Part shown: piece after piece, positions 387 to 42,623 of the stretch
How positions within the stretch are numbered: the first letter of the stretch is position 1
Layout: each line of letters begins with the position of its first letter
Source of the DNA: Lingula anatina
Lineage: Eukaryota; Animalia; Brachiopoda
Direction: 5' to 3'
NCBI GenBank assembly: GCA_051362555.1
Contig: CM120640.1
Span: 7,502,001 to 7,566,000, forward strand
Length of the DNA stretch: 64,000 bases
The notes under the pieces: model-generated
Database searches by the model: none
Told to the model about the DNA's origin: nothing
Seen by the model: the letters and a program-made list of their open reading frames with translations, nothing else
Translations under genes and position numbers: made by a program

Positions 387-1300
387 CTGGAATCAAACAC
401 AAATTTCATAAGTTTTTCAAAGAAAAAAGACAATAGATAATTTACAGTGTAACTATAAATTGAATATTTGTACAATGAAAAAAAACCTGTGCATATATCT
501 GGGACTGAAGTGATCAATTTGGGATTAGTACAGAGACATTTGGTGTGTGTCAACAAGTATACATTCAAACATTCTGTGACAAATAAAATGATCATGTAAT
601 CTTATATGGTCCACCTTTGTGCAGGCTTATACAGCAAATACATGTCTGGCAGTCTCACTCAAGTGATCACTTACTGCTAATGTGTCCAGCCTATCTTGCT
701 TTAGATTGACACAATGACAAGCTGTTGACAAACTACAATTTCCTGACATGTGCATGTGGATTTCAATACCTAGGTTCCCTCTGTAGTTTAAAGTCCTGGG
801 TACCATTATTTCTATTACAATAGATTTGACTACCACAGCCTGTTATTTTGTAACGTTTTACTGTTTATACAATCTTTTTGGTTCTTGCCACAAATTCCAT
901 GAGTCTAGTTCAATTTACCATCAATATTTCATCCACCAGATATAATGGACTCACTTGGGTTTTTATTTCCTCTCCATTTGCCAAGCAAAATATAATTCAA
1001 TTGATACATTGTTACAGTACCATTAGAGATACAGACAAGAAAGTCTAAATTGCTTGGTTGCATGGAATACTTTGGTTCTCATTTTGAATTTATAGGATCC
1101 AGAAAAGTTTCTAAGGAAAATCTATTAGAAAAGAAAAAAGAAAGAAAGAGAGGAAGAAAAATTTGGGGAAAAATGTGACCAAAAATTAAAGTTGTTTCAT
1201 TGCTGACAACCCATGGATAAAAATAAATTGCAAAAAATCTGCCTGTCTGTCAGCAGCAAAAGTGCACACAGTTCGATTTCAGAGAGAGAAATAAGTCTTA

Positions 1301-1819
1301 GGCTTCGTTCACATGGAAGGTCTATTTTCTAAAAATCTATTTTCTATTCGTGGTATATCTTGTAATCACGGTCTGTGTCCTGAATATCCTGCGGCGTAAT
1401 TACTGGCAGCGCGAGCCAGTTACTTCCAAAGCTGTAATTAATTCTCGGCTGTGCTCGGAGGAGATTCTGATACCTTGACGCATGCGCAGTAGGAAGTTAG
1501 AAAGTTAATGGCGGTCGTGGTTGCTTTGAAAAATGTGTTTGTCGATTTTGTGCAACAACAAGACGAAGAAGATGAAGAAGCTATACACACGACAGATATG
1601 ATGTGACCGTCATGATCCGATGGCAAGCGATGCGGCAACGGAGGATGAGATTTTATAGAATGCGAGCACAGCCAAGAATTAATTACAGCTTTGTATAAGT
1701 AACTGGCTCGTGCTGCCAGTAATTATGCTGCAGGATATTTAGGGCACAGACCGTGATCATAAGATACCGCGAATAGAAAATAGATTTTTAGAAAATAGAC
1801 TTTCCATGTGAACGAAGCC
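1301..1819. mobile_element. Palindromic MITE family 1 (PIF/Harbinger-like), copy 1
   Basis: Termini GGCTTCGTTCACATGGAA...TTCCATGTGAACGAAGCC, long inverted arms (~150 bp), TTA on both sides. Further copies at 21220, 26984 and 32514. Confidence 0.88.
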
Positions 1820-2987
1820 TTAAGCTTTACCATTTACTAACCATCACTCTAATAACAGCTGCAAACACCAACACTTGTTGGCCATAATATATTGCATATG
1901 ATCAATTTTTCTTTAATTTTTAATCATTATGAACATTAACAATATGTGACATGCTTTGGGATGATTGCACAAATGGATGCTAAGAGGATATAAAAACAAT
2001 AAACATCGCTTTGCTGTCATCTGCATGCTCTTTTGGCTGCATTCTGTGCTTCTCCATTTAGGATCCTGTGCACAATGGTTCTGACATTTTGTCTCTAGGT
2101 ATACAACACGCCAATTTTTAAAGGCTTAATGTATATGACTGAATAGTTGCAGGCTTATTAGAAGAGTGGTCACATTTAAAACAAATTTACATTAAACCAG
2201 ATAGAGTTAGGCAAATGCTACCAAACAGCTTGTTGTACTTTTTAAAGATCAAGCTCTAAAATTAGCAAAATCCGTGCTCCTAGCCATGGACATACTGTAT
2301 TTTCTTATCTAAATGACAACATGGCTAAATTATACATAAAAGCAAAGGCTCAATATTATAATAAACATTTATAGATAGTAATATCAGGGTAGAACTTGAA
2401 CCATCACTGTGAGGGTGCAATTACAGTAGTCCCTTCATGATTTGACCATCTGCTGACAACATTTAGGCTACGTATTTTTGCTTTAACTTGGACGTGCAGT
2501 GAATGCATCCTTAGAAAAATGGACAATCAATGGCTTCAGAGTTAATTTACAGCCATAAAGACATTCTTCTGGAATTCAATTTGCCATGTCATCTGGGGAA
2601 ACAGTATGAAAACATGGTAACCTTTCAAAATTGCCACATTTTCCAGCTTTGTGCACAGAGTGAATAGGGAAAGGTAATTTGTGTAAGCAAAATATCTTCA
2701 GCATCATGAAGAGACATCTACCACATGACCTTAGGAAAAGTTTGGGTTTATGATAAAATAAAACATGAAACAACATCAGAATTTTCAAAATATGTATAAC
2801 CTGTATAATTTTGCACTTCTATTAGTAAACATTTTATTTCAAAGTGTGAATTAAAAATTTAATGAAAAAGAAAGATCTGATCACTATAAATTCAAATATA
2901 CAAACATTGCTAATATAATTTGGCTTACAATTCAGTATTATTTGGCAGCAACCAGTGTACAAAACAAGTTCATTAAATGTACCAAAA

Positions 2988-2989
<2 letters not shown>

Positions 2990-3047
<58 letters not shown>
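2990..3047. repeat. (TA)n microsatellite
   Basis: Uninterrupted TA dinucleotide run. Confidence 0.97.
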
Positions 3048-3052
<5 letters not shown>

Positions 3053-4025
3053 TCATGTTCACATGTGAAAAAAGTATATATAAATAGGCCAGTAAACATT
3101 TATAGCTAAAACACAAATTTGACTAACAAAATTTATCAGACAGAACAACAATCCCACATCAAAGATGCACCTTTTTAAATACTTAGCCAAGTGTCCAAAA
3201 TGAAAATGAAATAGCTCTTTTTTTTCATATAGGCTTTTGATACTGAATGTCAGCATAATGTCACTAAAGAGTGATTTTAAAACATATCTGAAGCAAAAGG
3301 CAATGGTTACACTATGCTTATAAAATGCAAATATCTGAATAAAAAATGACTATAAAAACAACCTCCACTTCATTTACTTTAAGGCCTATTTCCAATGTGC
3401 AATCAAAAGATAAGGTGCAACTAAGAATGCAGAATAAAAAACTACTATCCATGCAACACTGGGGATTCCAATTCTCAGAATAATCTGAACAAAAGAACAA
3501 AAATATCATGCAAATAAATAAAGCATGGTGTTCATTTAGAACTGTAGCCATTGAGCTTGGGACACATAAAGGACACATAAAGCCTGCAAAGGGAAGTTAA
3601 TATCGAAATTGATCCAAACCAATTTCCAAGGCATTATGACGACTACAGCCAATGTATAAGTTTTGCTTCTTCCTTTGTTCTATACTGTAACTCAAACAAA
3701 ACATAAGAATAGGGCCAAACTAACAGAGGCATTGGGAGTGGAGGAAAAGGAAGATTGTGGAATCAAGAAATATTTTGATTTCTGATTATATCAGATAACA
3801 GTTTTATGAAATCAATAGAATTCCCTTAATTAACTGCTGTGCAACAGTGCGACATAGAGTTGTAAGAACCTGCGTGGGAGTTGCCACAGAAAGCATCCCC
3901 CTTTACCAAAGCCTCTGTAAATATTAAATATACAACATTTAAAATTACCAGTACAGGGGCATTCGATGAAATGAACTGAAAAATAAAAAAAAGAAAATCC
4001 ATTTGGTTAGAACACTGAGCTGCTA

Positions 4026-4061
<36 letters not shown>

Positions 4062-4549
4062 CTTATATACCTTAACTAGAAATTTTAGAGAGGTGGGGCA
4101 GGGCCACCTGATGAGTAAGTACCACCAGCCACTTGACACCATGTGTATCTTGTTTTTAACTTGACTCAAAAAACTACGAAGTAAATCCATAAGGTGAAAG
4201 GTAAAAATGCTGGTTGATCAGTTATCACAACAATGTAACTAAAATGCATTCATTTTAAACTTTTTTTCAAGTTATATTGCCAAAAATATATTTAGTCTAA
4301 GTTGCTCTACTTCAGTAAATGACTAAAGCTTAGTCCTCCTCGTTGTAGGCTATGATTTTCTTAAATCTTATTTTGAGCTCACTTTTAAGACCACAAAATA
4401 GGTTTCGGGGCTTTGAGATTCTTTGTGCAACACAACTTATTTTTGAAACTGAAAATTCCTGGTAGTCTTTGCTGTATGCAATTATTGACTTTTAAAAGTT
4501 CTTTTTTGCTGATAAAAGACTTATTTTACAAATTTTGCACGATTTTCTG

Positions 4550-4745
4550 GCCCCAGTTTCACAAAAAAAAAAAAAAAAAAAAAAAAACACTTAGGTCTGT
4601 TCCCTGGCTTAGCTGACTAGGATTTCCAAGAGACTGCTGTTACACTGCTCCTGATAGGGTAAGATGTGCCCTTATGACCATGTAACCTTGATAATTAAGT
4701 TCTTAGCCAGGGAACCTGACTTAAGTTTTTTTGTGAAACCAGGGC
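4550..4745. mobile_element. Small MITE with CTG target duplication (PHIS/Harbinger group)
   Basis: GCCCCAGTTTCACAAAA...CTTAGGTCTGTTCCCTGGCTTAG pairs with CTTAGCCAGGGAACCTGACTTAAGTTTTTTTGTGAAACCAGGGC. CTG flanks both ends. Confidence 0.7.
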
Positions 4746-5674
4746 CTGTATGGCCAAAGAGAAAAAGAAAATGTTTCTGTTTTGTCTCACTGAAATGGCT
4801 GGTGGAACATTCCTTGAAGGCAGCTTTTGGCTCTTGCTACCGTGAGTAAATAAAATTGTTTAAAAAAATTTACATCTCTTATTGGTGAAAACAATTTATA
4901 AAATAATCTTAAAATGAAAAAAAAAGCAAAAATAATTATTAATTAAAAATCTAATATAATTTGTACATAAAACCATGCACATTCTTGCAGAAGAAAAAAG
5001 CATTTAAAATGAAACTGAAGCCTCCTTGGATGTACCACAATTAGAGTGCTGATAGAACACATCATCAAAAAATTTCAATAACAATAAAAGTGACAGGAAA
5101 TTGAATCTAAATCTAGTAAAGAACGATGTTCAGGTATGATGGTCCTGGAAAGTGGAACTTAATGTCGACACCTTACGAGGACTTCAATCAGAATGATTGA
5201 ATATTATAGGTTTTGCATGACAGCGTAGGACAAGTTCATTAAGAATGGAATCTAAGTAAATATTGTTTAATGGACCAATAGATCCCTCAGTGATAGATCA
5301 ATCTATCTGACACATCAAAAGATCCCCCACAGATGAAAGCTTTTTTCTTTTAAGTATTTCCCGAATTGGTGTCATATGATAAAACCTACACATTTATTAC
5401 TTTACATCATGTTTTTACTGTAGTTGGAGAATAATACTTTCTAAATGCATAAAATTTTGCTCTTCTAAACTATGAGTTATCTGGATGGGATGTATTTGTC
5501 TATTGTTTTACACGATGCTGTAGAAAAAGTTTAATTTGCATACTTTAAATACATGCAAAAAAAAAAAAAAGACTGACTGACTGCTTAACTAAGAAAAATG
5601 TAATTGCTTTTCAAATCAATTAAGGCATGCATGTGCTGCAACATTCCAAAAGATGTAAAAATGCCAATTTGGCA

Positions 5675-5677
5675 AAA

Positions 5678-5712
<35 letters not shown>

Positions 5713-5715
5713 ATA
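5675..5715. repeat. (AAAT)n microsatellite
   Basis: About 10 AAAT units. Confidence 0.95.
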
Positions 5716-7196
5716 GCCATCCGATTCCCTTGTCTGCAGGCTTAATACATCATTGGTGAGAAAGAGCATCGCAAGTTTTAATCCTGATACATTACAGTCC
5801 TGATCATGGGAGCATCGATCATAGATAACTAATGATTCATCATTTACAACATCCACTAGACTTGACTTGATATAAAAGCATTCAGCATTGTGTGACAGCA
5901 TTCTATTTGAAGTGAAAACAAAAACATTTCTATTCTTTTCAAAATGTGCACCAGTAAGAGTAGGTGGGGAAAATTCTACTCTTTTTGTTAACATAGTATT
6001 ACACATTTCCCCTAGTCTGAGTTATTGAGTCGAGCTAAAGAATGGTAGTGGATATGAAGATAAAACAAAGAGTAATTGGAAACAATTATATAGTTTTCTA
6101 AAAATTGTTGCATTGTAAATGCTTATTTTCTTTTTGTTTAGTAGACCAAAAGAAAAGGAATTAACCATCTAATGACCCCATCTAAAAACATGATATGATA
6201 TATCATAGTACAGTGTAATTAGATAGGAATACAGACAGTAAATGTTGTTCTCACACACATGAAGTATCATCTAAAGGTATCTTATGACAGAAAGCAAACT
6301 TGACAGTTATCATTCAACCATACATTATGCTTTAGATGTAAAATGAGCATTTTCAGTCAAATCATGCTTGGTACAATAAACAGAGGTATAATATATAGGT
6401 TTAAAAAACATTAATCCAACACTTGTTTAACAATCCAACATGCCAGCATTGGCCCATCTTTCATACATGAATAACAAGCCTTTACCAAACCTCTCTAGAT
6501 GTAAAATTCTTTATCAGTATACATTATTTCATAAACACATATGTACCAGCAGACTAGTTGTCACAGATGCTAGGATATAGGGACTGATCAAAGCCTTCAA
6601 ACAAAAAAGGCATACAGGTATACGTGTAAAAGGCACTAGCTTAAACAGTTACAATAGTATTTTTGCTGAAGATCAGTTTAAATTGATCCTATCTGGCTAG
6701 AGACGGTGAAAGCAGAACATGGCAAGGTCTCATAAATGATATTTACCATTTGTGATATGGAGCTATAAATTAGCCATTTTAATCACTAAATTAACGAATT
6801 GAACTTCAATTTATGGTCTGATTGATATTAGTTTTTTTTTTCTTCTGATTGATATAAGTTGCTTTGGCACTCAATGCTTGGACTCCGCAAGTGACAAGTA
6901 ACTGAAAATTCCTTGAACAAATGTTTCCATCTACATAGATGGATATATTTTCTATTAATTAACATTATAATTTAAAAATAAATCAAAAGAAAAAAAACTT
7001 ATGTATTCATAAAATCTTATATCCTTCCTGCATATTGCAATCATGATACTGGAGAAAATCACTCTCCATAGTCTCCAGCACATGCAAAATCAGTTTATGT
7101 GCAGAATGACAGGTGACGGGACTTGCAGTTCAAAGTTTAGAACACGATACAGTCAGTTACACAAACAGACCATGAAGTTGCAGTTCAAATCATTAA

Positions 7197-7533
7197 AGGG
7201 ATAATAACTCTTCGTTTTGGCCAAAAAATGAATTTTCCTGGAGTAAACAACAATTTTCTCATACTTACCAATGGTTAATGAATCCATTTTTACATTCAAA
7301 GTTAGTCCCTGGTTTTTTTCTAAAAAGTTTGGCTTTTTGTTAAAATCTCTTAAGAGATTATAACAGAGTACAGCCATCAATAGAAGTCACGTGATCTGAA
7401 GACAAGCTCAGATATCAGAATAATAGCTATAACTGCTGGTTTTGTGGTAAAACAGAATATATTATACTTCTATGAGTTGTTCACAATGTTTTTATTGTGA
7501 AATAAAGATATAATACGAAGAGTTATTATCCCT
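7197..7533. mobile_element. Non-autonomous DNA transposon with TTAA target site (Kolobok-like termini)
   Basis: TTAA|AGGGATAATAACTCTTCGT ... ACGAAGAGTTATTATCCCT|TTAA: perfect 19-bp terminal inverted repeats flanked by TTAA. Confidence 0.75.
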
Positions 7534-7678
7534 TTAATTTAGTGACAGAAATCACTAATCCATGGCTCCAAGTCACAAAGTGCAATTTTTAAGGCCTGCA
7601 TGATTGCAGGGGATTATAAACACTACACGTACCTATGCACCAACTCTTCTATGCACCAACTCTTCTAAGGGCACAGAG

Positions 7679-7824
7679 TAAACTTTAGTTTTCAAATTTT
7701 AGGGAATCAGCACTCAATCTATACACTACAGATATGTTAAAATCAATAACAACCCTATCAACACTATAGGAACAATTGATTATAAGGAAAAAAGCGGGTT
7801 ATAAAATACTCCACCTCAATATGC
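7679..7824 (+). repeat. Dispersed direct repeat, copy 1 (copy 2 at ~10161-10304)
   Basis: TAAACTTTAGTTTTCAAATTTTAGGGAATCAGCACTCAATC...AAATCAATAACAACCCTATCAACACTATAGGAACAAT is colinear with 10161 onward, with moderate divergence. Confidence 0.8.
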
Positions 7825-8941
7825 GACTAGACAGCAAAGCTGGTAAATATACGGACATCATACAGGAAACAAGGCAGCAAAGCTGTCAAATGTTCAGACA
7901 TAAGCCAGAAAAAAGTGCACAAAATAATGTTTTGGCCTATTTTGTTGCACTGTTACATAATGCTTTAAAACAGCATAATCACTCTTACCCTCTTACATTA
8001 TGTACTACAGGTAACATGGACATTAGAAAATAAGCAACTGATTCAGTTCTATGGAATATAAAAAAGAAAATGCTTATGTGTGAAATATAAAAAATTCACA
8101 TGACAAAACCAGAATAATTACAGTAAATGTACACTGATCATACTGATTTTTGAAAGCAACCTGCTTCTTTACCAAACAAAGCCACTCAGTAAATTTAAAG
8201 TAAAACAGGCTAGGGTTATCCGGACATAAGTGGGTCAAAATCTAAGGTGAGGCTTGCCTATGCAAAATTAGTGGGAACCTGACTCTCTATCATGGGTCAC
8301 TCTCTGTCATGTCATACCGGACACATTACTTGCTTTTCCACTGAAAAATTTCCACATGATACAATATCCAGTCAAACAAGTACATCAATTTAGTACATGT
8401 TACAGCTGGAACATGCACTTCATCATGGAGATTCTCATTCCGTCATTTAAATAATGTATTCTGATGCAAGAATGTTTTACACCGATAAAAAGCATGCTGG
8501 GACAAATAATTTATTCACTACATCCCAAACACTAAAATTTGTTTCAATCTATTTGATTTTAAAACTTGCAATTGTCAGTTTGAAGACTGCTGGCTTGGTT
8601 CATGACTTCCTTTCCATGTACAAAATGCTATTTTCTCTTACTCAATGTCCATCATTTGACTCATCTCTCCATTTGGATTGATTGTTTAAATACCACTTAA
8701 ATTGGATATATTAGTGTTCAGGTACCATTTTGATTGCTACCTTTCTTCCTAACATTTTGCTAAACACGTACAATGCAGAATTGGGAACAAAAAAGAAATG
8801 GCCAATTGGTTTTTGATTTAGCTTGTTTATTGAATGCCATTACACTCTTGCTAAATATGTTGGAAAATAAAAAAAAAAAAAAAGATTTTACAACTAGGTG
8901 CCCACTTCATACATACATATACCAGCATGTGTAAAAGCATT

Positions 8942-9023
8942 CTATTTAATTGCCAGCCAGACCAGACATTGCAGGCATTTATCTTTAGCAGAGCTAAGGG
9001 TTAAATACAAGGGATTGCAACTG
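8942..9023 (+). promoter_or_regulatory. Putative TATA-like element and non-coding first exon of the nested peptide gene
   Basis: CTATTTAAT at ~8942, then a consensus donor CTG|GTAAGT at 9023/9024 that can pair with acceptor ccttgcAG at 9382. Confidence 0.4.
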
Positions 9024-9418
9024 GTAAGTAACAGATGTAATCTATACGGGCTTTTAAGTTACTTTCAGAGATAGATTTTAGCACAATTTGCTTTTGGTAT
9101 ATTACATTGTTGTAAAAATAATCAAACACTTATAATAGCAAATGTCAACTTCTTTTTCATGAGTAACCAAACTACAAATAACACCTTGTCTCAATTTAAG
9201 GTCTTACCCTTGGCTTACTGCATTCAGTGGTACATGATAGGGAAAAAGGAAAAATATAAAAAAATCCAAAAAGTTGTAAGTCGTGGATTTACTTACACAT
9301 TTAGACATGCAAGTACTAATAAAATTAATTTTTTTTCTGTGCTCATATTTTTGAAGTGGCCATGCAATGAATGTCCTTGCAGGTCATATTTCAACAGAAG
9401 CAAGACGTGCAGCACAAA

Positions 9419-9748
9419 ATGAAGACATCTGCGTTACTTCTGGTGGTCTTTGTGGCCTTTCTTACCGTAACTGTAGAAAGTGCAGTGACTGAAAGGTATT
9501 TTAATTACAGAAGCAAGATGATTTTTTGATGTAAATGTTTAAAAATGTCAAAAAAAGTCAAAATATCTCTCAGGTTGCTTACAGAAAATATGGGAAGATG
9601 GTGTAATTTAGCTTTTCATGTCACACCTTTAATTAGGTTCTTACCAAACGTAGAAGATGGTGCCATGTTTCGGAGGCCACTGAAGCGTGTACGTAGAGAC
9701 TGCTGCTATAGACCCCCATACTGGCCAATTTGTTGCCCTTATTTTTGA
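9419..9748 (+). CDS. Nested gene: secreted cysteine-rich peptide precursor (prepro-CC-CC peptide), join(9419..9495,9637..9748), 62 aa
   Basis: Exon A encodes MKTSALLLVVFVAFLTVTVESAVTE (signal peptide-like) and ends AG|GTATTT in phase 2. Exon B follows cacacctttaattAG (9636) in phase 2 and gives RFLPNVEDGAMFRRPLKRVRR-DCCYRPPYWPICCPYF*. An alternative in-frame acceptor lies at 9573. AATAAA at 10057. Confidence 0.75.
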
Positions 9749-10160
9749 GAAATCTTTCATCCAGTTTGCTTGCACATCCACGAGTTATTTGGATGCAGCT
9801 GCTAGCACATTTTGAAGAGGAACAATATGCGGTACTTTGCAAAGACTCATTTTTCACTATTACACAGGGATATTCCTGGGAACAAGCTTAACTTAAATTT
9901 ATTTGTATTCAGTCATAGTTTTCATCTTTCACTTTACTGCATTTCACTTTATTGCAATACCATATGCTATATAGCTATTTCAGAATAAGGCCAACATCTT
10001 TGGGATAGTTAGAAAACAAGAAACTAGTTATACTGTTTTACTTGCTTAAAAAGTAAAATAAAATCTAACTGCTTAAAAATACTGAAATCTGAGTTTTTAT
10101 TAGCATATCTTATTTATTACTTTTCAATAATGTCAGCATTTTACAGGGTTTCAGACATAG

Positions 10161-10304
10161 TAAACTTCAGTTTTCAAATTTAAGGGAATCACCACTCAAT
10201 CAGTACACTAGAGATTTGATTAAATCAATAACAACCTTATAAACACTATATGAACAATCCAATAAAAGAAAAAGTGTTTTAAAACATCCCACCCCAATAA
10301 TGCA
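10161..10304 (+). repeat. Dispersed direct repeat, copy 2
   Basis: Homologous to 7679-7824. Confidence 0.8.
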
Positions 10305-10555
10305 AAAATGAAGCAACACATCTAGGTCACGTGGTCAGGTGTCATCACACAAGCCACAGGGGACAGAGCCAGCATTTTAAGCTATCAAACTGAGCTTACA
10401 AACTGCTGATAACAGCCCACACCCATATACTTTTCTTACTTGAGGGGTTTAAATCTTTGTTAAGCCATTTTCCACTACATTTAATTCTTTAACCAGTATT
10501 TAATTACCACCTCTTCTAGTATAAACAGAGATTTGCAATACATAGGTCCATTTGA

Positions 10556-10580
10556 AGAAAACAAAACAAAACAAAACAAA

Positions 10581-10632
<52 letters not shown>

Positions 10633-10645
10633 TAAAAAATAATAA
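10556..10645. repeat. Compound microsatellite (AAAAC)n(AAAT)n(AAT)n
   Basis: Directly visible. Confidence 0.92.
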
Positions 10646-12890
10646 ACTAGAAGATATATTCACAAATTCTATTTTTTTTTTAAACTCTGGTGACAGAAGG
10701 TGATAAATCTGGCTTTTTGTGTACTGAAACAGACATTTTCCGATTCATGCCTCGCAGATATGCATAGTTTTCATATTCAGTTATGAAGGTTTAAGTAACC
10801 AAATATTATTTAATAATAACAATACTTTTGTATGATATTAGCACGTTTCTAATGCCAACAAAAATTACACTGCGTTAAAGGGGTATTACAGAATGCACCT
10901 TAATTTTACTAATGCATCTGTGTGCTCAACGTCAAGTATATTTTTCAGTGCTTAGTAACAAAGATTTACCTTCCAAGAGAATGAAGTGTTGCCATGTTTT
11001 GTGTATAACATTTAAATGTTCCCTGTCACCATATCGTCTTGCTAATCATGGACATAACTGAATTAAAGATATTTTATTGCTAAAATATTACAAAAATACC
11101 TAAGAACTAAAAATAATGGTCCTTATCAAAAGATGTCACGAAGGTTTTTTCAATTTTTAAATGCCAGGCAACCCTGCGAAAGTAGCCACAAGCTATTTAT
11201 TGCATTTTTTAAAATAAACATCCAGGACATTTTCTGAGATGTTAGACAACATACTTGCTTCTTAACAAGTTACACTTCTTAACAAGTTACAAACTTTCTA
11301 CATTAGTAAGAAAAAAACTAGATCATTGAGAATGTGAGATGGTGCTGTGAGCGCCAATAACGGAGATTTTAAATGCAGCCCATTTATTTTTTACTGTGTC
11401 AGAACTGATAAATCCAGTAAGTAAATTTTAATTGATTTAAGTTGCTTGACTGACATAAATTCTAGTTATACTGCTCACATACTTTTGATAAAATAAAAAA
11501 GTTAGATGGACCTACTCAATATTTATTTAGAATCTGTGAAAATCACGCAGTCCGATGACTTCATTTTAATCATTTGGTATTCAGGAAATCAAATGGAATA
11601 CATACCAGTTTGAACCATTTCACAGTTCAAAGAGTCTGAAAGTGACCCTAGCAGTCAGTATCATGACAAATCTGAGGTTGACCGAAGGGATTTCTCCAAA
11701 GTCCTACTTTGATAAAGAAATAATTATTTGGGCATGTTTCCTGAAGGATATGCTCCATTCAAGCCATTCTGATGGTCTGACTGAAACCCTTTAACAACCA
11801 CTTTTCTAGCAAGACAGCAATGACATCACCTCAAGTAGCCCAGACACCCAAAGACAGATCAATTATTTCTTTCAGTGATTTTGATATTCCTGGATAACTT
11901 AAAAATTCATAAGGAATTTTCCATCCTTCATTTCAGTAGGTTTAGTCTTAACACTGTAGTTAGCAATTAAAAAGGTACAAAGAAGGTAGGATCTTTTTCT
12001 GAAAAAGTGAACGCTTTAACTCCCTTATTTGACCCAACTTAAAAAAATGGCATAAAATCAAAGTTTGATTCAGAGGACTTTCCTATCTGAAAGAGTGGTA
12101 CTTTCAAACTGCCATAACCCCCCTGCCTGTTAGCCTGAGGATACAACTTGATCAATATTCCTTAGGGTGTCCAATGATGAAGAATGTGGCTTGAAACCTG
12201 TCAACTATTACCAACAAGACTGAAAACTTATCAATGTTCTGTCAATTCTGTCCAATAATTGCTTGGCCTCATTCAATATTCCACAAAACCTTCTCACTCC
12301 TACTAATTTGTTATGATTATAGTTATCGTTTGGTTGTCAGAAATGTCAACTTCAGCTATTTGATTGACAAACAGTTTTGAATGGCTGTGGCATTTGTGGC
12401 AGGTTACCAGGAAAAGTCCCATGAAAATAAAAGCATTACAGTTAAGTTTACACCACAGGTATCATTTTCGATATATAGCACTGTGGCCATTACCATTTCT
12501 GCAGCAATAACGGGGAAACTAACTGCCATAGACAAAAAGGAAAATGAAAGCAAATTGAATATACATGTGGAATGGTCATGTAAAATGGGGTGACTATCCC
12601 CATAATTTGATAGGGGAATACTAGTGCCATGGTAATAAAAAATCAAAAGTGTTGTGTATTATACCAGAACTGCATTTTGAGTGTAGCTTATGATTATGTA
12701 ACGGTTTGTCCTCCAAGAGTTTTTGAGTATCATGCCACATTTACTAGCTGTCTCAAATCATTTTTGCAATATGAGTGTTGCGGTTTTTTAATGCTGAACA
12801 GGTACTGTTCCTATTATGAATAGTATTGCATCTAAGATTTGAATCAATCATGGCAGTTCCCTTGAAAAATTCCATTTTGTGAATGTTTTA

Positions 12891-13474
12891 GGCCGCATTC
12901 ACATCAATAAGAGCTGAGGCTCAATAAAGCCGAGACTTAAACATGGCGGACGTACATGAAAGGAAAATTGCCTAATCTTTTAATAGTCTCTCCGCCTCTC
13001 ACACGCCTCCCCACGCGTCGTCCTTGCGGGGGTACAGTCATTAAATCTCGGCCACATTCGCCCGAAGCTACCTGAGAAAAATTAAGTGCGCATGCTCATT
13101 GGTCTTGGGTCAGCTGACATTATCTCCATAGATAGCCGATTCATTGCTGCTCTATGGGCCAATTCATAAATTCCTTTTTCATCTCTGTTTTGAAAGATAA
13201 TAGAACAGAAGAACTTTTTTCCTTCGACCGCCTCCAGGCACCATGCTTTCTTCACCTCGAGTTTAATTGATGAGCATGCGCACTTAATATTTCTCAGGTA
13301 GCTTCCGGGCGAATGGAGATTTAATGACTGTACCCCCGCAGGGACGACGCATGGGGAGGCGTGTGAGAGGCGGAGAGACTATTAAAAGATTAGGCGGTTC
13401 TCCTTTCATGTACGTCCTCCATATTTAGGTCTCGGTTTTGTTGAGCTTCGGCTCTTCTCGATGTGAATGCCGCC
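12891..13474. mobile_element. Palindromic MITE family 2, long copy
   Basis: TTA|GGCCGCATTCACATC...GATGTGAATGCCGCC|TTA, with ~210-bp inverted arms containing ATGGCGGACGTACATGAAAGG...CTCTCCGCCTCTCACACGCCTCCCCA. Confidence 0.87.
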
Positions 13475-15588
13475 TTAGATCAGAATATGCAGGAAACACA
13501 TGTGATGACACCCTAGCGGGACAGCCAACAAATCTGCACTCTGCAAATCAATAAGTTGCCAATTCTCACGAAGAAGAAATTCATTTGAAAGCAATACATA
13601 AAAGACAAACAAAACAGGTGTGTAACAAGAGAAGCTGTTTTTATAGACCACAAAATATTCAGTAACCACAGAGAGAAGCTGATCGGAATGACTTTTCTAG
13701 TTGCCACTTTGTAATTGCATGTAACCTTTTTTCAGTTTTTTTTTCTGTACAAAAATTCCTTTGCTTTGTTGTATGCCTGAGTCATCGATGAACTATCAGC
13801 AAATTCTGTGGCTTTTTTTTTGTATTCATGAACCTCCAATTTTCAAAAACATCAAATCAAAGTTTTTTTAAAATATTCTCTTCATATTTTCTATGATAAT
13901 TTTTTCCACAAACATTTCAAAATGAATTTCTCTGCAGCATTCAACCAGTTCATTTCACAGTCAACATTAACCTGTGGCAAGGAACTTAAAAAAACATCAG
14001 AAGATTATTAAAAGTTCTGCCTAAAACCCAACTAAATTGCGGGAAATCAATGATCAATACAAACTGAAAGTTGTCTACATGGCTATATATGGAATTGAAT
14101 GGAAGCTTGCCTAAAACTGCACTATTGGCATTTGGCCACAGAAGCTTCTTTGAAAAGATGTTTTTTAAAGGAATTCTATTCTTATAATATGTATAAGTTG
14201 GCTTTTGCTGTTACAACAGCATCAAAACAAGCCTTAGTGGAAGAAATTGCTTGAGATGAATTTTTTTATTAAAAATAAAAGCAGAGAATAATTGACACTA
14301 AAAAAGTGTTTTCAAATCTTTTTTTTCATATACTGTATAAATGTTTGTTTTGGATCAATCTTTCAGAAATTTGTTGCCATAGATCTTTAAAATTCATAAT
14401 TGTTACAACTTATGCACCTTGAAACATGGCAATCTAAAAACTCTTTATAAAATGCTATTCAACCTAAAAACTTGATCCAAATAATTTCTCATTTCCCCCA
14501 TTTTTTCCGCAATCTTACATCACATTTTCTGAAAAGATAAATCAGAACAGCATTCACTGTATTATTGATACATAGGGCTGAGTTGACAAAATTTAGGTAA
14601 TCAATATATGTGTACTAACAATAGGCACATTTCCATTTGCTGAACCATAGAATTACAGATGCTTGGATTACATAGCTATGCAGAAGACATAAATACCAGC
14701 TGACAAAACCTCAAGAAATGTACAGAAATTACAAAAAGTGTTTTAGTTCACTATTCAATCTCCCCACTATGAGTTCTGATATGGGATCATGTCAAAATAC
14801 CCCCTCCCCCTGAATCCAACACTACCAGGTCCCTGCATTGTTAGATTTCCAACCAATATGTAGTTTCTCCAATACTACAATTTTAGCCAAAGGAAATTAA
14901 ATTTGTAAAAAAAAATCAGTTTTTTTCCAAAAATTAAATCATTTTATGACTGGGCAGTCAATGGCCCATTTTTGTCTGTGATTGAAAAAGCTTAGGGGTC
15001 TACCAGTACATGGTTCTATCTGTAAAGGAAGCTATCATTGTGGTGAGGTAGCTTTGTTGAGGGTGGGATCTGTCCACTTAGTGAAAGTTGCATAAAATAC
15101 ACACTGCTAGTCTTGTATGTTTCATCTGCGCTGTCATTGATAAATTGTACAATAATTAAATAAGCTTTTGCAGTTAATTGTCACATTATATGTGCTATTA
15201 AGCAATGATAATATTTATAGCATTCATGACACAGTTCAATTTAGGTAGGTAGTAGGAAAGAGAAAGGCAGCAGGTGCAACTGAAAAGAAGACACAATTTA
15301 AAATGACAGTGATACAAAACAACCATGCATACAATATGTGAAGTATATGAAGAAACAGTACTGGAAACTAAAAATAATGACAGACAATAATGAAAGACAG
15401 ATAGGCAAATAGTGGAGCGAAGAGAGTACATGATTAATTGAACTTAATATAATGCATTTTTCATGCTGTTACGCCCAACAATATGTCACATGCAAAATAC
15501 ACTGTCTTCACTCAAAAATGCCTTAAATACATAATGTATCAATTAAAATTTTAAGTAAATCTAATTCTATTTAGAAATTTCCACTTAC

Positions 15589-17180
15589 TCCCAGTTATTC
15601 TTGGGTGGCGGCAGGTCCCCGATAGTGGTCAGTGTGAGTGTTGACCAGTACAAGGACTTGAGGTACATTCGAGTGACCGATGCATACTCTCCCTGGAGGG
15701 GTGGGTAGGACCAGTCATTAGCGGGGAAATTTTCTGATTTACTGATGAGGAAATAGAAAGCGGCAAACCAGTGAGACCCCAGCAGCAGGATATGGATTAG
15801 GTTCATCACCCTCCAGAAGTTAGGATAAATTGTCCGGGATTCTGCCATGTAATAGAATTGATACACTCTGTATACCTTGAAAAATCTAGGAAATCTCCAC
15901 ATTGGATGTATACCTGTAGTCAGCTGTAGAAGATCCAGAGGTGTCAGGGCAAGTATATCTATTTTAAAGTAATGTGATTTGACATAGTGTAACGCAAGTT
16001 GCTTGGAGTCATACACTATCAGTCCTTGCTCCAGGTAACCAGTCCTAAACTGGAAGGCAATATCTGTTAGGTACATGAAATCCATGAAACCATCTAAAAT
16101 AAACCATGCCAAAGGACTGCCTGTTTGTATGTCTGGGAAAGCCTCTCTGGCTATCAATGTCCATAAGTTATACAGAGCACATAGGGCCTGAACCCCAAGC
16201 CAGTAAAACATTGTATCACCATCAGGATTCACCACAAAAGTCCACTTTCTTTTGTTCTTTTTATTTTGTGTTTTACTCTGTCCTTCTTCCTCATCCTCAT
16301 TTTCATCCGTTTCTCGCTGGCGAGTAGAAAAACGCTGAAGAAATGAGTCCTGTCGATTCATACCTGAAGATTTTCTCTTAAATTCTCTGCCCGCAGGACG
16401 TTGCACCTCATTGGTTGCCTTCAAAGTATTCTGGAGTTTCTTCCACCTTGCTGTGGGTCTTCCTCCACTTATTTCTTTCACCCTTTGATCTGTTTTTTCA
16501 ATCAGATTTTCCTTTTCCATACCTGCTTTTGCCAACTCCTGCCTTCCCACCTGCAGAACATTATCCTGATTGCTGATGACTTGCGAATCTTCACTTTTTA
16601 TCATTCCCTCTTCTTCGTCAGACTTAATTAGGTTCCCATTGTTGCTATTAGGAAGAGTACATGTCGTTTCATCACTCTCTGGGCTATTCAAAGCAGCTTT
16701 TAGCTCCTGATCTAACATCTGAACGTTCAAATCCTGGTAGTCATCCTGATCTAATTTAGAACTCATTATTGATGGTTGTGTCTCCCTTGTTCTCAAAGGA
16801 AGTTTTGTGTTATATTCATCTTGCACATTTCTACTTATGTGGGCATTTTCTACAGCTGCCACATTGACAGTATCACTCTCCTGCGGCTGTTGTGGTAACC
16901 ACACTGGTGAAATAGACTGTTCCTCATCATTCATGCCACCCTCGGCCGCCACACTGACTTGAGTGCCTGTGACATTTACTTCCAGCTCAGGGGAGACCTC
17001 TTTTGTGTGGTACATATGTGAGTTGCTATCATGATTACCCAGCATCTCTAAGGACTCACTTGGCTTGCCCTTGTTACTATTAATTGGCTGCACAGTTCCA
17101 GGGGGACGATGCCTCTTTTTCTTTTTCCTTTTTCTTACTTCAGATTCACCGTTCTCAGCCATAATTGCCACAGCTTCCAT
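15589..17180 (-). CDS. Cyclic nucleotide-gated cation channel, Cngl-like: large exon covering disordered N-terminus, S1-S5 and pore
   Basis: 531-aa ORF with the CNG motifs FRTGYLEQG, LALTPLDLL, RFPRFFKVYR, HWFAAFYFLIS and the pore YLKSLYWSTLTLTTIGDLP. Acceptor tttccAG at 17210-17209 upstream of the ATG; donor GTAAGT at 15588. TTIGDLP plus YVFTILSYLIGVFVFATIVG resembles the Drosophila Cngl subfamily (from recall). Confidence 0.92.
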
Positions 17181-20100
17181 CCCTCAATAAACACAAGCTC
17201 TAATGAACCTGGAAACAGTATATGTATTAAGTAAGTGTCTCAATCAGTACATTTTCAAATTCAGTTAATCTCAAGATCGACTGATCAGTGTAGTAAGTGG
17301 GGTGTACATAACAATGTGGTTGTGTGGGGAGAGGTGCTGTCAAGCCACTTGAAAAACCTATTCAAAAGGCAGCTGTTAAGTAACCAAACAAAAACTGTGT
17401 GCTAAATAAATATCAATGGGAGGCGAAAGAGGGAGCACTTCACGTCTTACCTGCCAAATGACCTGTGTCTTATTACATACCTGTTTGACCAATCATTTAG
17501 TGATAAGCCAGTGTTTACTTGTCAATTATATGGCCAAAACAAGGTATTAGCAAGCTTTTGTTATTTCAAGAAAATTTCTTCATACAAACTATACATGAAT
17601 TGTTTTTTTTTTTAGCCAGCTTCAATGAATTTTTGTTGAGACTAGAAGAGTTATGTATCAGTTAATATGGAGAGCATCTTTATTAAAAGGCAAGGGAGAA
17701 TAACTGATCGTGTCAATAGGAGTAAGCTAAATGTCATCTGACAGATTATGCCTCATTGACTGAGAATTAATCATTATATACATAAGAGTATTGTCAGAGA
17801 ACTGAGCTCTGTTCTTTTTTTTTGCTTCTCAATACTTGGTTATTAGATGCTTCAGATTCACAAACTGATGCAGCAGATAGAGAAATTTAATCTAAGAACA
17901 AAGGACAGTGGCGGAAATGTATATTAGGTGGCAAAGAGCTTACTTCACAAAGGCTCCAATTTCAAATTAAAGATGAGCAAATGTCGATTACCTGTTGACC
18001 TGGAAAACTCCATCCTGTTGACTTTGCGCTGCCTTGATCCACCTGATGTTATCAGATATCCTTAGAAAATCACCATCACCACTTCTTTTTTTTACTTGAC
18101 AACCAATATTTTAGCAGGATTGGATTTTGTAGAAGCCCTGAAAGTTGTGCAAATACACAGAAGTCTGATAACTCTCAATATTGATCTTTCTAAATCTTCT
18201 CTTGTCACACAACAGCTGACATTAATAAAAAATTAAAATTTAGGATAAGAAGTGTTACCATGGTTACAGCTGATGTCACCAGCTGAAAAGTTCCGAGTTT
18301 AAGAAAAAAAATATGAGCATAATGAGTTTTCCTGAAAATTACCAAATCATATACTACAGTAGTAATATCTCATCTGAAAAAACACCGAGTAAATCCATGG
18401 ACACGAAACTATTTTAGATGACAAGTTTGACTTCTAAAATCAACTCCTACAATTTCATGTTATAACTAACATTATCCCACTTTTTGCTTCAAAATTAGTG
18501 CCCTTAGATAAGCTGAAAAGCAGAACAATCTTCTGAAATAAATACGCAGTCCCAGGTAAAATTGCTGAAATTAAAAAAAAAATGTTTTGCTTTTTCAACC
18601 ATACAATCATACCTTTAATCAGTTTTCAACCAAAGCAGGATTAATTAAAAGTTGATGCATTTCTTTTAAGTATGAAGAATAAAAAACTTGCAATTACCAC
18701 TAAACGCAAAATAACTTCTGAATAAACAACCAAATAGTTCTGATTTGAAAACTGTGAAGCAAAACAAACATTCTGGGTCTTGTGCACCCTCCCCCCAAGG
18801 AAAAAAAATGCATCCTAGATTTTTCAGTAGATCAATGCTGTAAGAACCTACATGCATTTTATGTAGAATAATCAATTAAATGAAGAGAAAACCCCACTGT
18901 GTCTTTTCATTATTAAATACAAGTAAGAAAAGGTAATCTAAACTAGATAATTAACAGTGGGGGATGAGAAAACAGCTTCATCACAAAACAAGTCACACGT
19001 TCATAAATCAATTGACTGAGTATTGTTATCATTTAATAAATCAGCACCTATAGTGATAAAACAATGGGAACTTGTCATTTCTTTATTATTGGTCTTGGAC
19101 TTGTCCCTGACACAGGTGCAGGCAGGAATAGGGAAAACAAAACAAAATTTCTCTCAAAAATCTTTATTTTTTCATTATTTTTTTTTTTATCTTTTTTTTT
19201 GCCTGCAGAACAGTTCCAACTCTCAGTTCCCCTTCATACTCCTTCAATCCAATGTACAATAAGCAGGCCTATAGTCCTGTAACTAAGACAGATGAAAAAC
19301 AAAACTTCTTTAATTCCCAGTGTGAAACAAATCAAGCCGTAGGAATCCTCGATTTCTTGAAGATAAAATGGAAAATAGCAACATGAAAGGAACATTTGAT
19401 TAGACATTGATCAGCACAGTCCTGCAATCTCAGGAGGCCATTTCTCTGGTGGTTTACCAGGTTATCTGAACAATAAACATTCAGGGGATGGCAGAACAAT
19501 TTCAAGCCAAACAAACAGCCCAGTACTTTGGTTGAGGAAAATAAAGTTTGGGACGTTGCACACTATTTCAACCGACCATGTGATTATCGTTTCTAACTAT
19601 AATAGGAAATCAAATTGAATCTAATTCCCGTGATGTGCATCCTAATTCCGTGATGTGCATCGCCCACCTCCGTAATTGAAGAAAGTCGCATTCTGTTCCT
19701 GAGGTTCCTAATGGCTGGATACCATAATGACAGGGTCTAGAGAGATCTGAAGCTAAGCCATCATAGCTGATTGGAAACACAGTCCATCTCACAAGGTAGT
19801 TATCATGGTATGTATACTGAGGCCATCTATCCATATTCCGACAATTTCAATTTAGATAATGAGACTAAGATGTGAAATGCAGTGTATTACTAAGGAAAAA
19901 AGAACAATCAGAAAGCTAGTCTCAGTGATGTGTAAACTGTTCAGTACCCTTCTTTCTGCACAAAGTCATTATTTTTAAAAGTCCAAGTGCAGTTTTCACA
20001 TTTCAAATAGTGAGAGTTGAGCAGACTTAGGTACTGTCAAGATAATACCCCCATGTCTCTATTTCAGAATATATCAAATAAAATCTAATGGAAGACCGCT

Positions 20101-33087: not shown

Positions 33088-36000
33088 TTGTTAGTGCTTT
33101 GTTATAGTTAGTTGAGCTGTCATTGATTGTACCTTGTATGTAAAGGTGTTTATCAATAAAGAATCTGGTAGTTATGGTGCCAGAGAGAAACAGGTAAAAC
33201 TTGCTGATCCGCCAACTTAATATGGCCGACCACAGTTCAAAGTGATGCTGCTGATTCCTGATGGTCTCCCAACTCCACACGCGCCATTAAATGGATTAAA
33301 TCTCAGCATGTGTGAAGGCGGGGAAACCATCATGGAATTAGCGGCATGGTTTTGAACTGTGGTCGTCCACATTTAGTCGGCAGTTCAGTAAGTACTCAGA
33401 TCATCCATTCTAAATGGGGCCATTGACAAACAAGTTACAAGAAGTATAATTCCATTCATGCTCGCCTGTTCAATCATTTGATGAATCTAAATACAACCTT
33501 ATTAATGGCACACTAGTCTAATGTTCAGAAATGACTGTGGCCTAATAGTAATCAAAATTATTCAACATTCAACTTTGTATTTAAAATCCACTATGCATTA
33601 ATTATATTAATTGTCATCAGAACTTGTGATTAAGATGGAAAAAATCTGGACATCAGTTGTCTGGTCATACCTTCAACTGCAATTGTGTTCATCCAGTCTG
33701 AACATGATGTTCACATACATAATGTAGGCTAAGGCACATTTGTTTTGGTAGCTTTCCACCTATTTTTAAGAACTCAAGCAATTTATTCGAAATAATGCTT
33801 ATCTTCCATAAAAATTATCACCAAGGTCAGTCTGACTCTGAATTATTGATGTTTATGTGAAATATATGAAGAGTCACAGTGAAGCATTCTCTTCATGATG
33901 GAGTGTTATTTCATTAAAGGTAAAGAGGATGAATAACTACCTTCTAAATAAATGCTCTTACGGAAATGGATTTTGATAACATTTTAGCACTTTTCCTCTA
34001 ATTATTACCCTACTAGTACTCAATTTTCTCGGTGTCAGCTCTACCTTATTCATCTTTTGGAAGTTTTGTAACCAGATGCCCTTACAGATGTTTTTCATTG
34101 CCCAGGCTTAAAAGTTCAATAGCCATTATAAACCTTGTTTGAGTTCAAATTATTTTTACAGGATGAAATGAACTAATAGTGTTTTGGAGCGCATTCAGAG
34201 CAGCGGACTAAGAGATCTGCCGATCACATATGGCCTACCCTCTTGAATGCTTGTTGCATAATCCCAACAGGTAATCTGTTCAGTGTCTAATTGGGAATTA
34301 AGCAGCAAGCTTTTCATTGGAGGAAATCATAATATAACCACACAGCTAATTTATGTTTTTCATATTCAGGTTGGTAATTACCTGCGGATGTTCAGAGGTT
34401 CTCTTTACAAGAAATACCCATCATTATGGAGGAGGTTATTGTCACCAGAGGAGAGGAAAAACATAGCACAAATTGGTAGGTTGCAATGCTTTTTCCTCTC
34501 ATCACTCTCTATCTGCTCTTTCATGACACAGAATCTAGATTTGTTAGGTATTCTACTCTTCTATTTCATAAGATTTAGATACAATAGAGTGGCAGTAGAG
34601 AAGTTTCAGTTTCAATAAAGAGTAGGTCTTTACAAATTGCAGTATTTAAGGTAAACAAAAGCTAAATGTTACTCTGTTGATATCTCTTTTGTTATGATTC
34701 AATGAGTCATGAACAGTAACAATCAAGTTACAGGCCAACTGAACAGAATTCTCTTATCTATAGAGTTAAGTATAGTACCAAACCTGTCTATGCACTTCTC
34801 AATGTGTTGTCTTCAATAGAATTATTTCACATCAGTCACGCATATTTTCAGCTTTAAAGTATTATTTATATGAGTATAGCAGCATAATAATGCAAAAATG
34901 AGTCAAAGCAAAGTATACAGTGCATTAAATGAAACAAATATTGATTGGTTTTGCACTCCAAAAAAGACTTATAAATTTATTAAATGTTATCATGTCATTT
35001 TCATTATATATATTCTTCTGTTCCCTCTAACTATACTGCTATTTAATCTAGATGTTAAAACCATGCAAATAGAGGTATAAAAAGATAAGCTTACTAAATT
35101 ATGTACTGTACTTACCCTAGTGCTTGAATTACAAATAAGTCTCCTGCAACAAAAAAAAAAAAAAGGGGGGGGGGAAGAGCAGTGAGGCTTCATGTGAATC
35201 AACTAATGGGGAATACCCGCTTTAAGGGTCTGCCGCTAGATGGCGTGGGGGTGAAAGCAGTCCTTCTTAAATCTCGCAGAATCTCGCTCACGGCTTTACA
35301 CCAGAGTTTAACATGGAGCGTGTGCACGCGTCGCTGACAGTGAATCAACTCAAACGCAATTTACTTGAATGTGGTGCCATAACATCTGGATGAAAATGTG
35401 AATTGACTGAAAGGTATGTGTTTTCTTTTCATTTAGTGCTTGAAAAACAAGAATGCTAACTATTTTCCTTGAAAAAAATCGAACATTAGTCGAGGTGTGT
35501 GTGTCAAATCTGACATGTTATGTACATGTAGACTACTGTAGGTACGAGTAGGCCTACGCTCATATTTTGTTTTAGTAGCACGAAAGACGAAGATTTTTTA
35601 TGCTTAGTAAATGTACTTATTTTTTTTCTTTATAAGGTTACCCAAAGAAGGCCCATATATTGGGGGCAAAGCCTGAAACTGTCGATTTCAGGACCCCAGG
35701 ACAGCCAACTTCAAGAGCAGGATAAAATGATTACTTCAGGAATCTTACCCGTCACTTCACATCAGCGGCAAAGATTGATGTAGCCACCAGTTATGCCTAC
35801 CCTAAAGCTGACTTACAGGCGGCTGTGATGGACAACAACTATTGCCAAGTGCCATGAAAACAATAATGCATGGATAGAGGGAATGATGTAAGTGAAAACA
35901 GAGGTCTAATATTAAGAATCAGGCCCAAATATGAGAAAGAATTATCAAACTAGGTGATGTGTGACATCATAGAAATATAAAAATGTATCTTAACTATTTA

Positions 36001-42000: not shown

Positions 42001-42623
42001 ATGTTTGGCAGTTGAACCTACATGTACCTTCCTTATAAAGCTGTGTCACGTATACCAACCTTGCACCTTTATCTTCAGTGAATCTCCTCTACCACTAGTA
42101 GAAGTGGCCATTCGCAATCAGAACGAGGCTGACACCTGGTGTCCCTTCCTGGAGACACTGACAGACGCAGAGATGGAGAAAAAGATAAGGGATCAAGACA
42201 GAAACACAAGGTAATATTTTAATCTTAGAAGTAATTTTTTTCTTGTTAATGTTTTCTGTATAGAAAACCATTTGACCCTTATTTTATAAAGTTTGTAACC
42301 CTGAATCTTGACATGCACAACTCCATACTCTTACTCTCAAGTCAATGAAGATAGTATCTCTTTAACCTTTTACAAAGGGAAGATATTTTTTCATTAAGTT
42401 CAATTTAATGATTTTTATGTAGTGGCATTTCAAATGTTTTTTTTAGAAAATTGACAATTAGCAAGTGAAAATGTTCAGGTGGATCAAGCTGAAGTGGCTC
42501 TTGTCTAACCCCACTTTAAAACCTTTTTTTCTTGATTAAAATCAAACCTGTATATTAATTTAAAATAATCTTTTCTCTTTCAGGCGTATGCGGCGTTTGG
42601 CCAATACAGCACCATCATGGTAA
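31713..42623 (+). CDS. SMARCB1: SWI/SNF core subunit SMARCB1/SNF5/INI1, complete, 384 aa
   Basis: join(31713..31823,34370..34475,38213..38354,39335..39472,39857..39984,40495..40661,40950..41058,41445..41526,42079..42210,42584..42623) = 1155 nt, all GT-AG and in frame. Motifs: [100 protein letters not shown] at 42710. Confidence 0.97.
32514..32771. mobile_element. MITE family 1, copy 4 (diverged subfamily) in SMARCB1 intron 1
   Basis: TAA|GGCTGCGTGCACATG...CATGTGAACGCAGCC|TAA; arms homologous to family 1. Confidence 0.85.
32851..33421. mobile_element. Palindromic MITE interrupted by a ~310-bp insertion that includes an (ATTT)n tract at 33038-33086
   Basis: CCCATTCAGCATGGATGACCTGAGTACTT (32855) pairs with AAGTACTCAGATCATCCATTCTAAATGGG (33390). 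The inner arms CGACCACAGTTCAAA / TTTGAACTGTGGTCG resume at ~33200. Confidence 0.55.
36047..36418 (+). pseudogene. YqaJ/lambda-exonuclease-like gene remnant of the ISL2EU element
   Basis: Reads [22 protein letters not shown] and later [28 protein letters not shown], both YqaJ-family motifs, with a stop and frame breaks. Confidence 0.8.
36730..37340. repeat. Two-copy AT-rich tandem duplication (~310-bp period) inside the ISL2EU element
   Basis: ATTTGGTTTT.CTGCTTTTTAA...TTTCTTAAACTGTTACAAAAAG...CCATTGGCTGAGAAATTGCA occurs at ~36744 and ~37054. Confidence 0.85.
37444..37786 (-). pseudogene. THAP-domain/DDE transposase remnant (N-terminus fused to C-terminus by deletion)
   Basis: ATG at 37786 gives [31 protein letters not shown] (THAP start, W to stop), followed directly by [10 protein letters not shown]...[25 protein letters not shown] (Harbinger/ISL2EU DDE C-terminal motif, catalytic E to K). 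Confidence 0.8.
38583..38935. mobile_element. Degenerate palindromic MITE in SMARCB1 intron 3
   Basis: CACAAATGCCCAAATTAACGACTCCAGCCACAAATTAAC...AATTACTTGCCAC pairs with GTGGCAAGTAATT...TTTTGTGGCTAGAGTTGTTAATTTGAGGATTTGTG. Confidence 0.55.

Follow-up and report, generated by a model that had tools for sequence, protein, structure and literature searches.

The DNA analysed here is a single stretch of 64,000 nucleotides from the brachiopod Lingula anatina (hereafter the window), whose minus strand carries a cyclic-nucleotide-gated (CNG) channel gene matching CNG channels at up to 62% identity (59% for the best named matches, from an annelid and a ribbon worm). In a tblastn search with the Capitella protein P0003, residues 2-289 aligned to 16451-15588 and residues 290-320 to 385-293 as a gapless continuation, and, on the minus strand, linking the channel exon that ends at 15589 to the one that starts at 386 preserves the reading frame. 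This continuity, together with the splice-like ends of the sequence in between, places a small peptide gene in antisense orientation within one 15.2-kb CNG intron (Table 1), which is the nesting in an ion-channel intron that a first-pass annotation of the sequence had proposed. The same intron holds two MITE-like elements with long terminal inverted arms, at 1293-1827 and 12890-13475 (arms of 64-70 nt at 90-92% in one and of 160 nt at 91% in the other). Elsewhere in the window, the plus strand bears SMARCB1/SNF5 exons at 34262-42211 (PF21459 at 34262-34615, PF04855 at 39798-40079), a good neutral neighbour for gauging how distant an RNA sample is from the genome. It also bears a 707-codon open frame at 51959-54079 (acidic and rich in Ser near the beginning; Pfam search negative up to E 10) and a 157-codon open frame at 57283-57753, again without a Pfam match, which is probably an internal exon beginning after a TAG acceptor near 57345.

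Transcription of the peptide gene was evaluated in RNA runs chosen by species label (X1, X2, X5, X6, X8 and X9, with X3, X4, X7 and X10 left out), in which reads less than 80% alike to the window escape mapping. The joint across intron 2 was recovered at 9493/9635 (GT..AG, with the cut at +2) in the X1 contig, in 14 X5 reads and in one X8 read, and exon-2 sequence was attached to exon 3 in 45 X5 and 20 X9 reads. Spliced reads from X1, X5 and X8 thus bear out the phase-2 GT-AG joint of two plus-strand exons (9495/9637) at the centre of the first-pass annotation; the alternative acceptor that it had offered near 9574 was dropped, as was another near 9585, both having zero depth (in 4/4 runs for 9574). 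Its candidate upstream non-coding exon stood in part: 17 X8 reads join this proximal first exon to 9383, but the junction in these reads is five letters longer than in the window model, and the donor at 9024 lacks a window-identical read. The X1 contig (565 letters) is identical to the window over 9383-9493, and over 9635-10079 it departs from it at 12 letters and six gaps. The kind of this run is unrecorded, and the absence of the intron suggests cDNA; the contig ends at 10079, i.e., 22 nt after the start of the AATAAA at 10057 with which the gene had been predicted to end.

X5 is a stranded run whose first mates map to the minus strand (65.4 vs. 1.24 at 9381-9451), and this strandedness together with the GT..AG borders points to a plus-strand RNA. 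Expression in X5 was moderate (183 mapped reads of 9.5 million); X5 and X6, both from one study, gave 98 and 2 reads, and none of the 12.4 million X2 reads fell on the exons. The gene is thus expressed on the plus strand in some samples, with expression absent in others. X5 and X8 reads further establish two first exons, the distal one lying ~2.8 kb upstream, where a GTATAC donor (CAG, then GT, at 6618) directly follows the matching segment, and where a match of 27/30 was reached by 0 of 100 shuffles. Downstream of the gene, a 35-nt stretch at 10300-10335 drew partial X2, X5 and X8 reads whose unrelated flanks indicate that it is a dispersed repeat transcribed elsewhere.

Table 1. Features of the peptide gene and of its host gene in the window.
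Feature	Position	Strand	Evidence
Host intron of the CNG channel gene, 15.2 kb, phase 2	387..15588	-	tblastn of Capitella P0003; GTAAGT and CAG ends
Large exon of the CNG channel (open-frame extent)	15589..17183	-	PF00520, E 4.6e-17
Distal alternative first exon, minimum extent at 5' end	6585..6617	+	Loose 5' end of 60 X5 reads matches 6585-6614 at 27/30 letters
TATA-like TATTTA, putative role	8943..8948	+	Precedes proximal first exon; X8 depth begins in bin 8955-9025
Proximal non-coding first exon, minimum extent	8986..9023	+	17 X8 reads link exon to 9383; longest short side 38
Intron 1, within 5' UTR, 359 nt, GTAAGT..CAG	9024..9382	+	X8 reads; X8 form with five extra letters at junction
Exon 2: 36 nt of 5' UTR, ATG at 9419, predicted signal peptide (codons 1-22), start of pro-region	9383..9495	+	X1 contig identical over 111 letters
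Intron 2, 141 nt, phase 2, donor GTATTT, GT..AG	9496..9636	+	Joint in X1, X5, X8; frame check
Exon-3 pro-region, ending in furin-type RVRR site at 9686-9697	9637..9697	+	Sequence
Predicted mature peptide and stop, hypervariable segment: 16 residues, CC-x8-CC	9698..9748	+	Translation, variant counts
3' UTR, with AATAAA at 10057-10062	9749..10079	+	X1 contig reaches 10079; X5, X8 depth stops in bin 10020-10090

The locus is therefore occupied by a three-exon, spliced and expressed orphan gene encoding a 62-residue precursor, whose spliced frame spans 189 nt (62 codons and one stop, at 9746-9748). Hydropathy and the RVRR motif agree with the signal, pro-region and mature peptide layout put forward in the first-pass annotation: the first 22 residues resemble a signal peptide (computed peak hydropathy of 3.36 over 11 residues, small residues before the predicted cut), and the predicted mature peptide of the window form has a net charge of 0 and a computed monoisotopic mass of 2020.78 Da with two disulfides. 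Its cysteine motif is the only CC-x(2-12)-CC across the six frames of the window, for which the chance expectation is 1.5 per 64 kb in six frames, dropping to 0.08 once a preceding basic site and a following stop are also required (60 simulations). By itself the CC-CC motif is weak evidence, and it is the reads that settle the reality of the gene. No upstream ATG occurs in the proximal 5' leader; 8952-9023 joined to 9383-9418 is open in the frame of the ATG (read by hand), so that transcript-based gene callers may give a longer protein. Neither exon 2 nor exon 3 has a second copy within the 64-kb window. The proximal form of the gene is bracketed by a 119-nt direct repeat (85%; 7673-7791 and 10155-10273), one copy 1.2 kb upstream and the other just past the 3' end, which may be relevant to past movement of the gene or to its recombination.

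The exact window form was found in none of the runs examined, most raw reads being 90-95% alike, and at least four expressed forms could be read by hand from difference tables of mapped reads (one in X1, two in X5 at ~9:1, one in X6 from 2 reads, one in X8 and one in X9), with differences concentrated in the mature segment. The X1 form, which comes from one contig of depth 2.7 where errors are possible, keeps CC-x8-CC and an RxxR, and its exon 3 has a single silent difference and five that alter a residue, each of the latter lying at the cleavage site or within the peptide. The X5 main form (~9 in 10 reads), with a loop assembled from two loose-end consensus lines (37 and 44 reads) overlapping by 15 letters, has CC-x5-CC, an earlier stop, and three Arg of RVRR lost with no RxxR left, so it would be processed otherwise or not at all. 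The X5 minor form (~5 reads) and the two X6 reads resemble the window in the pro-region and at the first Cys pair, and have differences of their own elsewhere. X8 and X9, which come from one study, share a single form that keeps an RxxR and a 16-codon mature peptide colinear with that of the window (five X9 reads span the whole mature segment), but in which all four Cys codons are replaced (one by Ser, three by Arg), giving four Arg among 16 residues and no acidic residue. Relative to the window, 13 of the 16 mature codons of this form are changed, all 13 of them residue-changing, while length, open frame and RxxR are kept (counted by hand); in the exon-2 coding part of X8, residue-changing differences are 6 out of 7 (also by hand). 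Alternative last exons at the locus were rejected as the origin of these forms, since the window contains no second exon 2 or 3 copy and the variants differ in exon 2 too.

To compare rates of change along the gene, Fisher tests were applied to the hand-read difference counts with the window form as reference. In the X8/X9 form, 18 of 48 mature-segment bases differ in a gapless hand count (14 substitutions and 3 one-base gaps in the tool alignment), vs. 9/61 in the pro-region (p 0.008), 9/113 in exon 2 (p 1.4e-5), 1/64 at the UTR start (p 3.4e-7) and at least 17/221 in the 3' UTR (p 8.5e-7, or 0.001 with the UTR count doubled), such that the mature part changes four to five times faster than the UTR. 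The X1 contig shows 6/66 differences around site, peptide and stop vs. 6/490 elsewhere (p 0.0012, for a segment chosen post hoc). Within the mature region, pN/pS is ~0.42/0.23 (by hand), which on 16 codons is non-significant alone, and the case for selection therefore rests on the contrast between the mature segment and its flanks. A rival reading without selection is that of a young, weakly constrained orphan gene whose mature segment was altered by local hypermutation or gene conversion. The signal and pro-regions also show mostly residue-changing differences, the furin site is gone in one form, and no homologue emerged from searches with the exon-3 peptide (see below). However, the frame is open in every form read, the four Cys were lost jointly without a stop or net frameshift, and the excess change lies in the 48 nt between cleavage site and stop, so we regard relaxed constraint as distinctly improbable.

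A further question is whether the forms are alleles or paralogues. Each expressing run contained one or two forms and never more, the window holds no second copy, and the first exon of the X5 main form matches the locus 2.8 kb upstream, all of which fits a single locus. The peptide could then be a self/non-self or mate recognition ligand (a gamete-attracting peptide, a spawning pheromone or an allorecognition signal) encoded by deeply diverged alleles or species-specific forms of one locus, a reading that we hold to be unlikely but worth weighing. The ligand part of recognition proteins evolves fast, as the mature segment does here, and the host gene belongs to a channel class that serves sperm chemotaxis in sea urchins. 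On the other hand, the distal exon differs at 3 of 30 letters, much like the UTRs, which weakens the allele argument: ~10% divergence in the distal exon and UTRs, together with the 9:1 ratio of the two X5 forms, fits cryptic species or a whole-locus duplicate equally well. In addition, the form counts are limited by the mapping threshold, as reads less than 80% alike go unseen, and the loss of all four Cys would be hard for one receptor to track. A bolder version, in which diverged alleles at one locus switch between disulfide frameworks and a Cys-free cationic form as self/non-self or mate ligands of a broadcast-spawning brachiopod, seems to us quite unlikely. If true, the locus would be comparable, among animals, to the self-incompatibility ligands of plants or the pheromone alleles of ciliates, and the appearance or disappearance of a cysteine framework within a single step of selection could be observed directly.

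Database searches with the exon-3 peptide found no homologue, just as none had been recognised in the first-pass annotation; these queries comprised the exon-3 peptide only, so relatives sharing only the signal could be missed. A phmmer search with the 36 exon-3 codons against 1.84 billion representatives returned two matches, both of them translated tandem repeats, which were discarded. The last 40 codons (36 of exon 3 and 4 upstream) yielded no candidate among proteins of 22-70 or 71-2000 residues, the 36 exon-3 codons had 0 matches among PDB sequences, and the exon-2 and exon-3 peptides, searched separately, had no Pfam match at E up to 10. The ESM Atlas gave no usable match to the exon-3 peptide and was uninformative. 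No description of the gene turned up in literature searches, whose results did not extend to bioRxiv supplements or to a 2018 survey of Lingula immune genes that may list the peptide. Among the options named in the first-pass annotation, an endogenous neuropeptide or hormone would account for the signal peptide, the basic cleavage site and the short C-terminal peptide. Signalling peptides, however, keep their mature part (bioRxiv 2022.08.05.502922), and the mature part is here the least conserved region. Three window motifs are also missing from the one accessible supplementary file of a brachiopod neuropeptide survey (PMC8557429), where a fourth, shorter motif matches FRFamide precursors only, and no such family appears in the available parts of papers on toxin-mimic neuropeptides (bioRxiv 2022.08.05.502922; PMC12621736; PMC9048919). 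The neuropeptide option is accordingly disfavoured, and we consider it very improbable.

A mature segment that outpaces signal, pro-region and UTR is a trait of peptides with a constant prepro region and a hypervariable tip; the Lingula gene works like these families and is a member of none of those compared. A conserved prepro region with a hypervariable tip is described for the MgCRP-I peptides of Mytilus (PMC4558851), myticalins (PMC5577615) and frog skin AMPs (PMC7106915), and conotoxins share this mode (PMC3862624; PMC3914837; PMC7551347). MgCRP-I resembles the Lingula gene in its conserved signal, short pro-region, basic convertase site and hypervariable, positively selected mature peptide, as well as in its non-coding first exon, phase-2 last coding intron and taxon-restricted distribution (PMC4558851). 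It differs in having six invariant Cys (C-C-CC-C-C, a knottin) where Lingula forms have four or none, and four exons in a ~50-gene cluster vs. three exons and one copy in 64 kb; sequence similarity between the two was not found. Myticalins share with the Lingula gene a conserved signal, a hypervariable, Arg-rich linear mature peptide as in the X8/X9 form, a three-exon structure with an intron in the 5' UTR, and inter-individual variation (PMC5577615). Their mature peptides (23-42 residues), however, directly follow the signal and precede an acidic C-terminal pro-piece, whereas the Lingula pro-region precedes a C-terminal mature peptide, and their coding intron is in phase 1. Both CRP-I and myticalins are multigene families, whereas no cluster is seen around the Lingula gene within 64 kb. 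Frog skin AMP precursors likewise combine a conserved signal, a propiece and a hypervariable C-terminal peptide, with pathogen-driven selection on the frog side (PMC7106915), but have acidic propieces (short and mixed in Lingula), multi-locus genes and an origin in an unrelated phylum.

T-superfamily (framework V) conotoxins are similar in their ~60-residue signal, pro and mature organization, CC-CC with a loop of 5-8 residues in the Cys-bearing forms, and fastest change in the mature part (PMC3862624; PMC3914837). Common ancestry or transfer, to which the similar length and CC-CC frame might point, is nonetheless extremely improbable, as membership fails on both signal sequence and intron phase: T-superfamily signals are of the MRCL/MLCL type, from which the Lingula signal differs by eye, and T-superfamily genes have two phase-1 coding introns vs. 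one phase-2 coding intron and a 5' UTR intron in Lingula (PMC3862624). Moreover, the Cys frame is fixed in the T-superfamily and variable in the Lingula gene, neither exon piece has a Pfam match at E up to 10, and the host is no cone snail. The likeness to framework V is convergent, and the warning of the first-pass annotation that convergence was as likely as kinship was well placed. Its conotoxin-like CC-CC label suits the window, X1 and X5 main forms but not the X8/X9 form, whose mature region is cysteine-free, and the Cys pattern, whose conservation it had proposed as a check, is not kept in all expressed forms. The peptide is less conotoxin-like, and more dynamic, than had been held.

Convergence might extend to function, with the peptide being a deterrent toxin whose targets would be ion channels or GPCRs in predators or fouling organisms. 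We know of no venom apparatus in brachiopods, expression is only moderate (the 183 X5 reads), and this role strikes us as improbable. Judged by eye, the spacing of both CC-x5-CC and CC-x8-CC is that of framework V (PMC3862624, Table 1), accelerated change of the mature part is typical of conotoxins (PMC3862624), and a Cys-free member exists in the O3 superfamily (PMC3914837). Yet Cys are conserved in conotoxins and CRP-I (PMC4558851; PMC9048919), and they are lost in one main form here.

The reading that we favour, with roughly even confidence, is that the gene encodes a secreted defence peptide under diversifying selection. The precursor would enter the secretory pathway, where the signal would be cleaved after residue 22, and a furin-type cut after RVRR would free the 16-residue C-terminal peptide, with two disulfides presumably formed in the Cys-bearing forms. 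The peptide would serve in defence against microbes or parasites, and diversifying selection would come from its targets: Cys-bearing forms may be compact aromatic/Pro-rich knots binding a specific target, and the Cys-free, Arg-rich form may work as a linear cationic peptide. Change in the mature part at four to five times the UTR rate, up to the loss of its framework, points to an arms race with an outside target, and the shift to a short, linear, Arg-rich peptide suggests microbes as this target; uneven expression across samples also counts for the defence reading. Against it stand the single contig of depth 2.7 behind the X1 form, the loss of RxxR in the X5 main form, the non-significant pN/pS of the mature region, the lack of a cluster in 64 kb, and the net charge of 0 of the window peptide, most membrane-active AMPs being charged. 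Its closest analogue also weighs against it, as synthetic MgCRP-I peptides had no antimicrobial, cytotoxic or insecticidal activity (PMC4558851; PMC10138031).

Overall, the gene is real, and its size and position make it easy for annotation to overlook; it also illustrates that kinship with conotoxins should not be read from a CC-CC motif alone. Described families of such peptides keep their Cys fixed, whereas Lingula forms only ~8-10% apart in their UTRs vary in the loop or lose all four Cys. These forms are natural variants, few in number and open to synthesis, with which one can ask how disulfide frameworks come into being or are given up, and which secreted effectors brachiopods employ.
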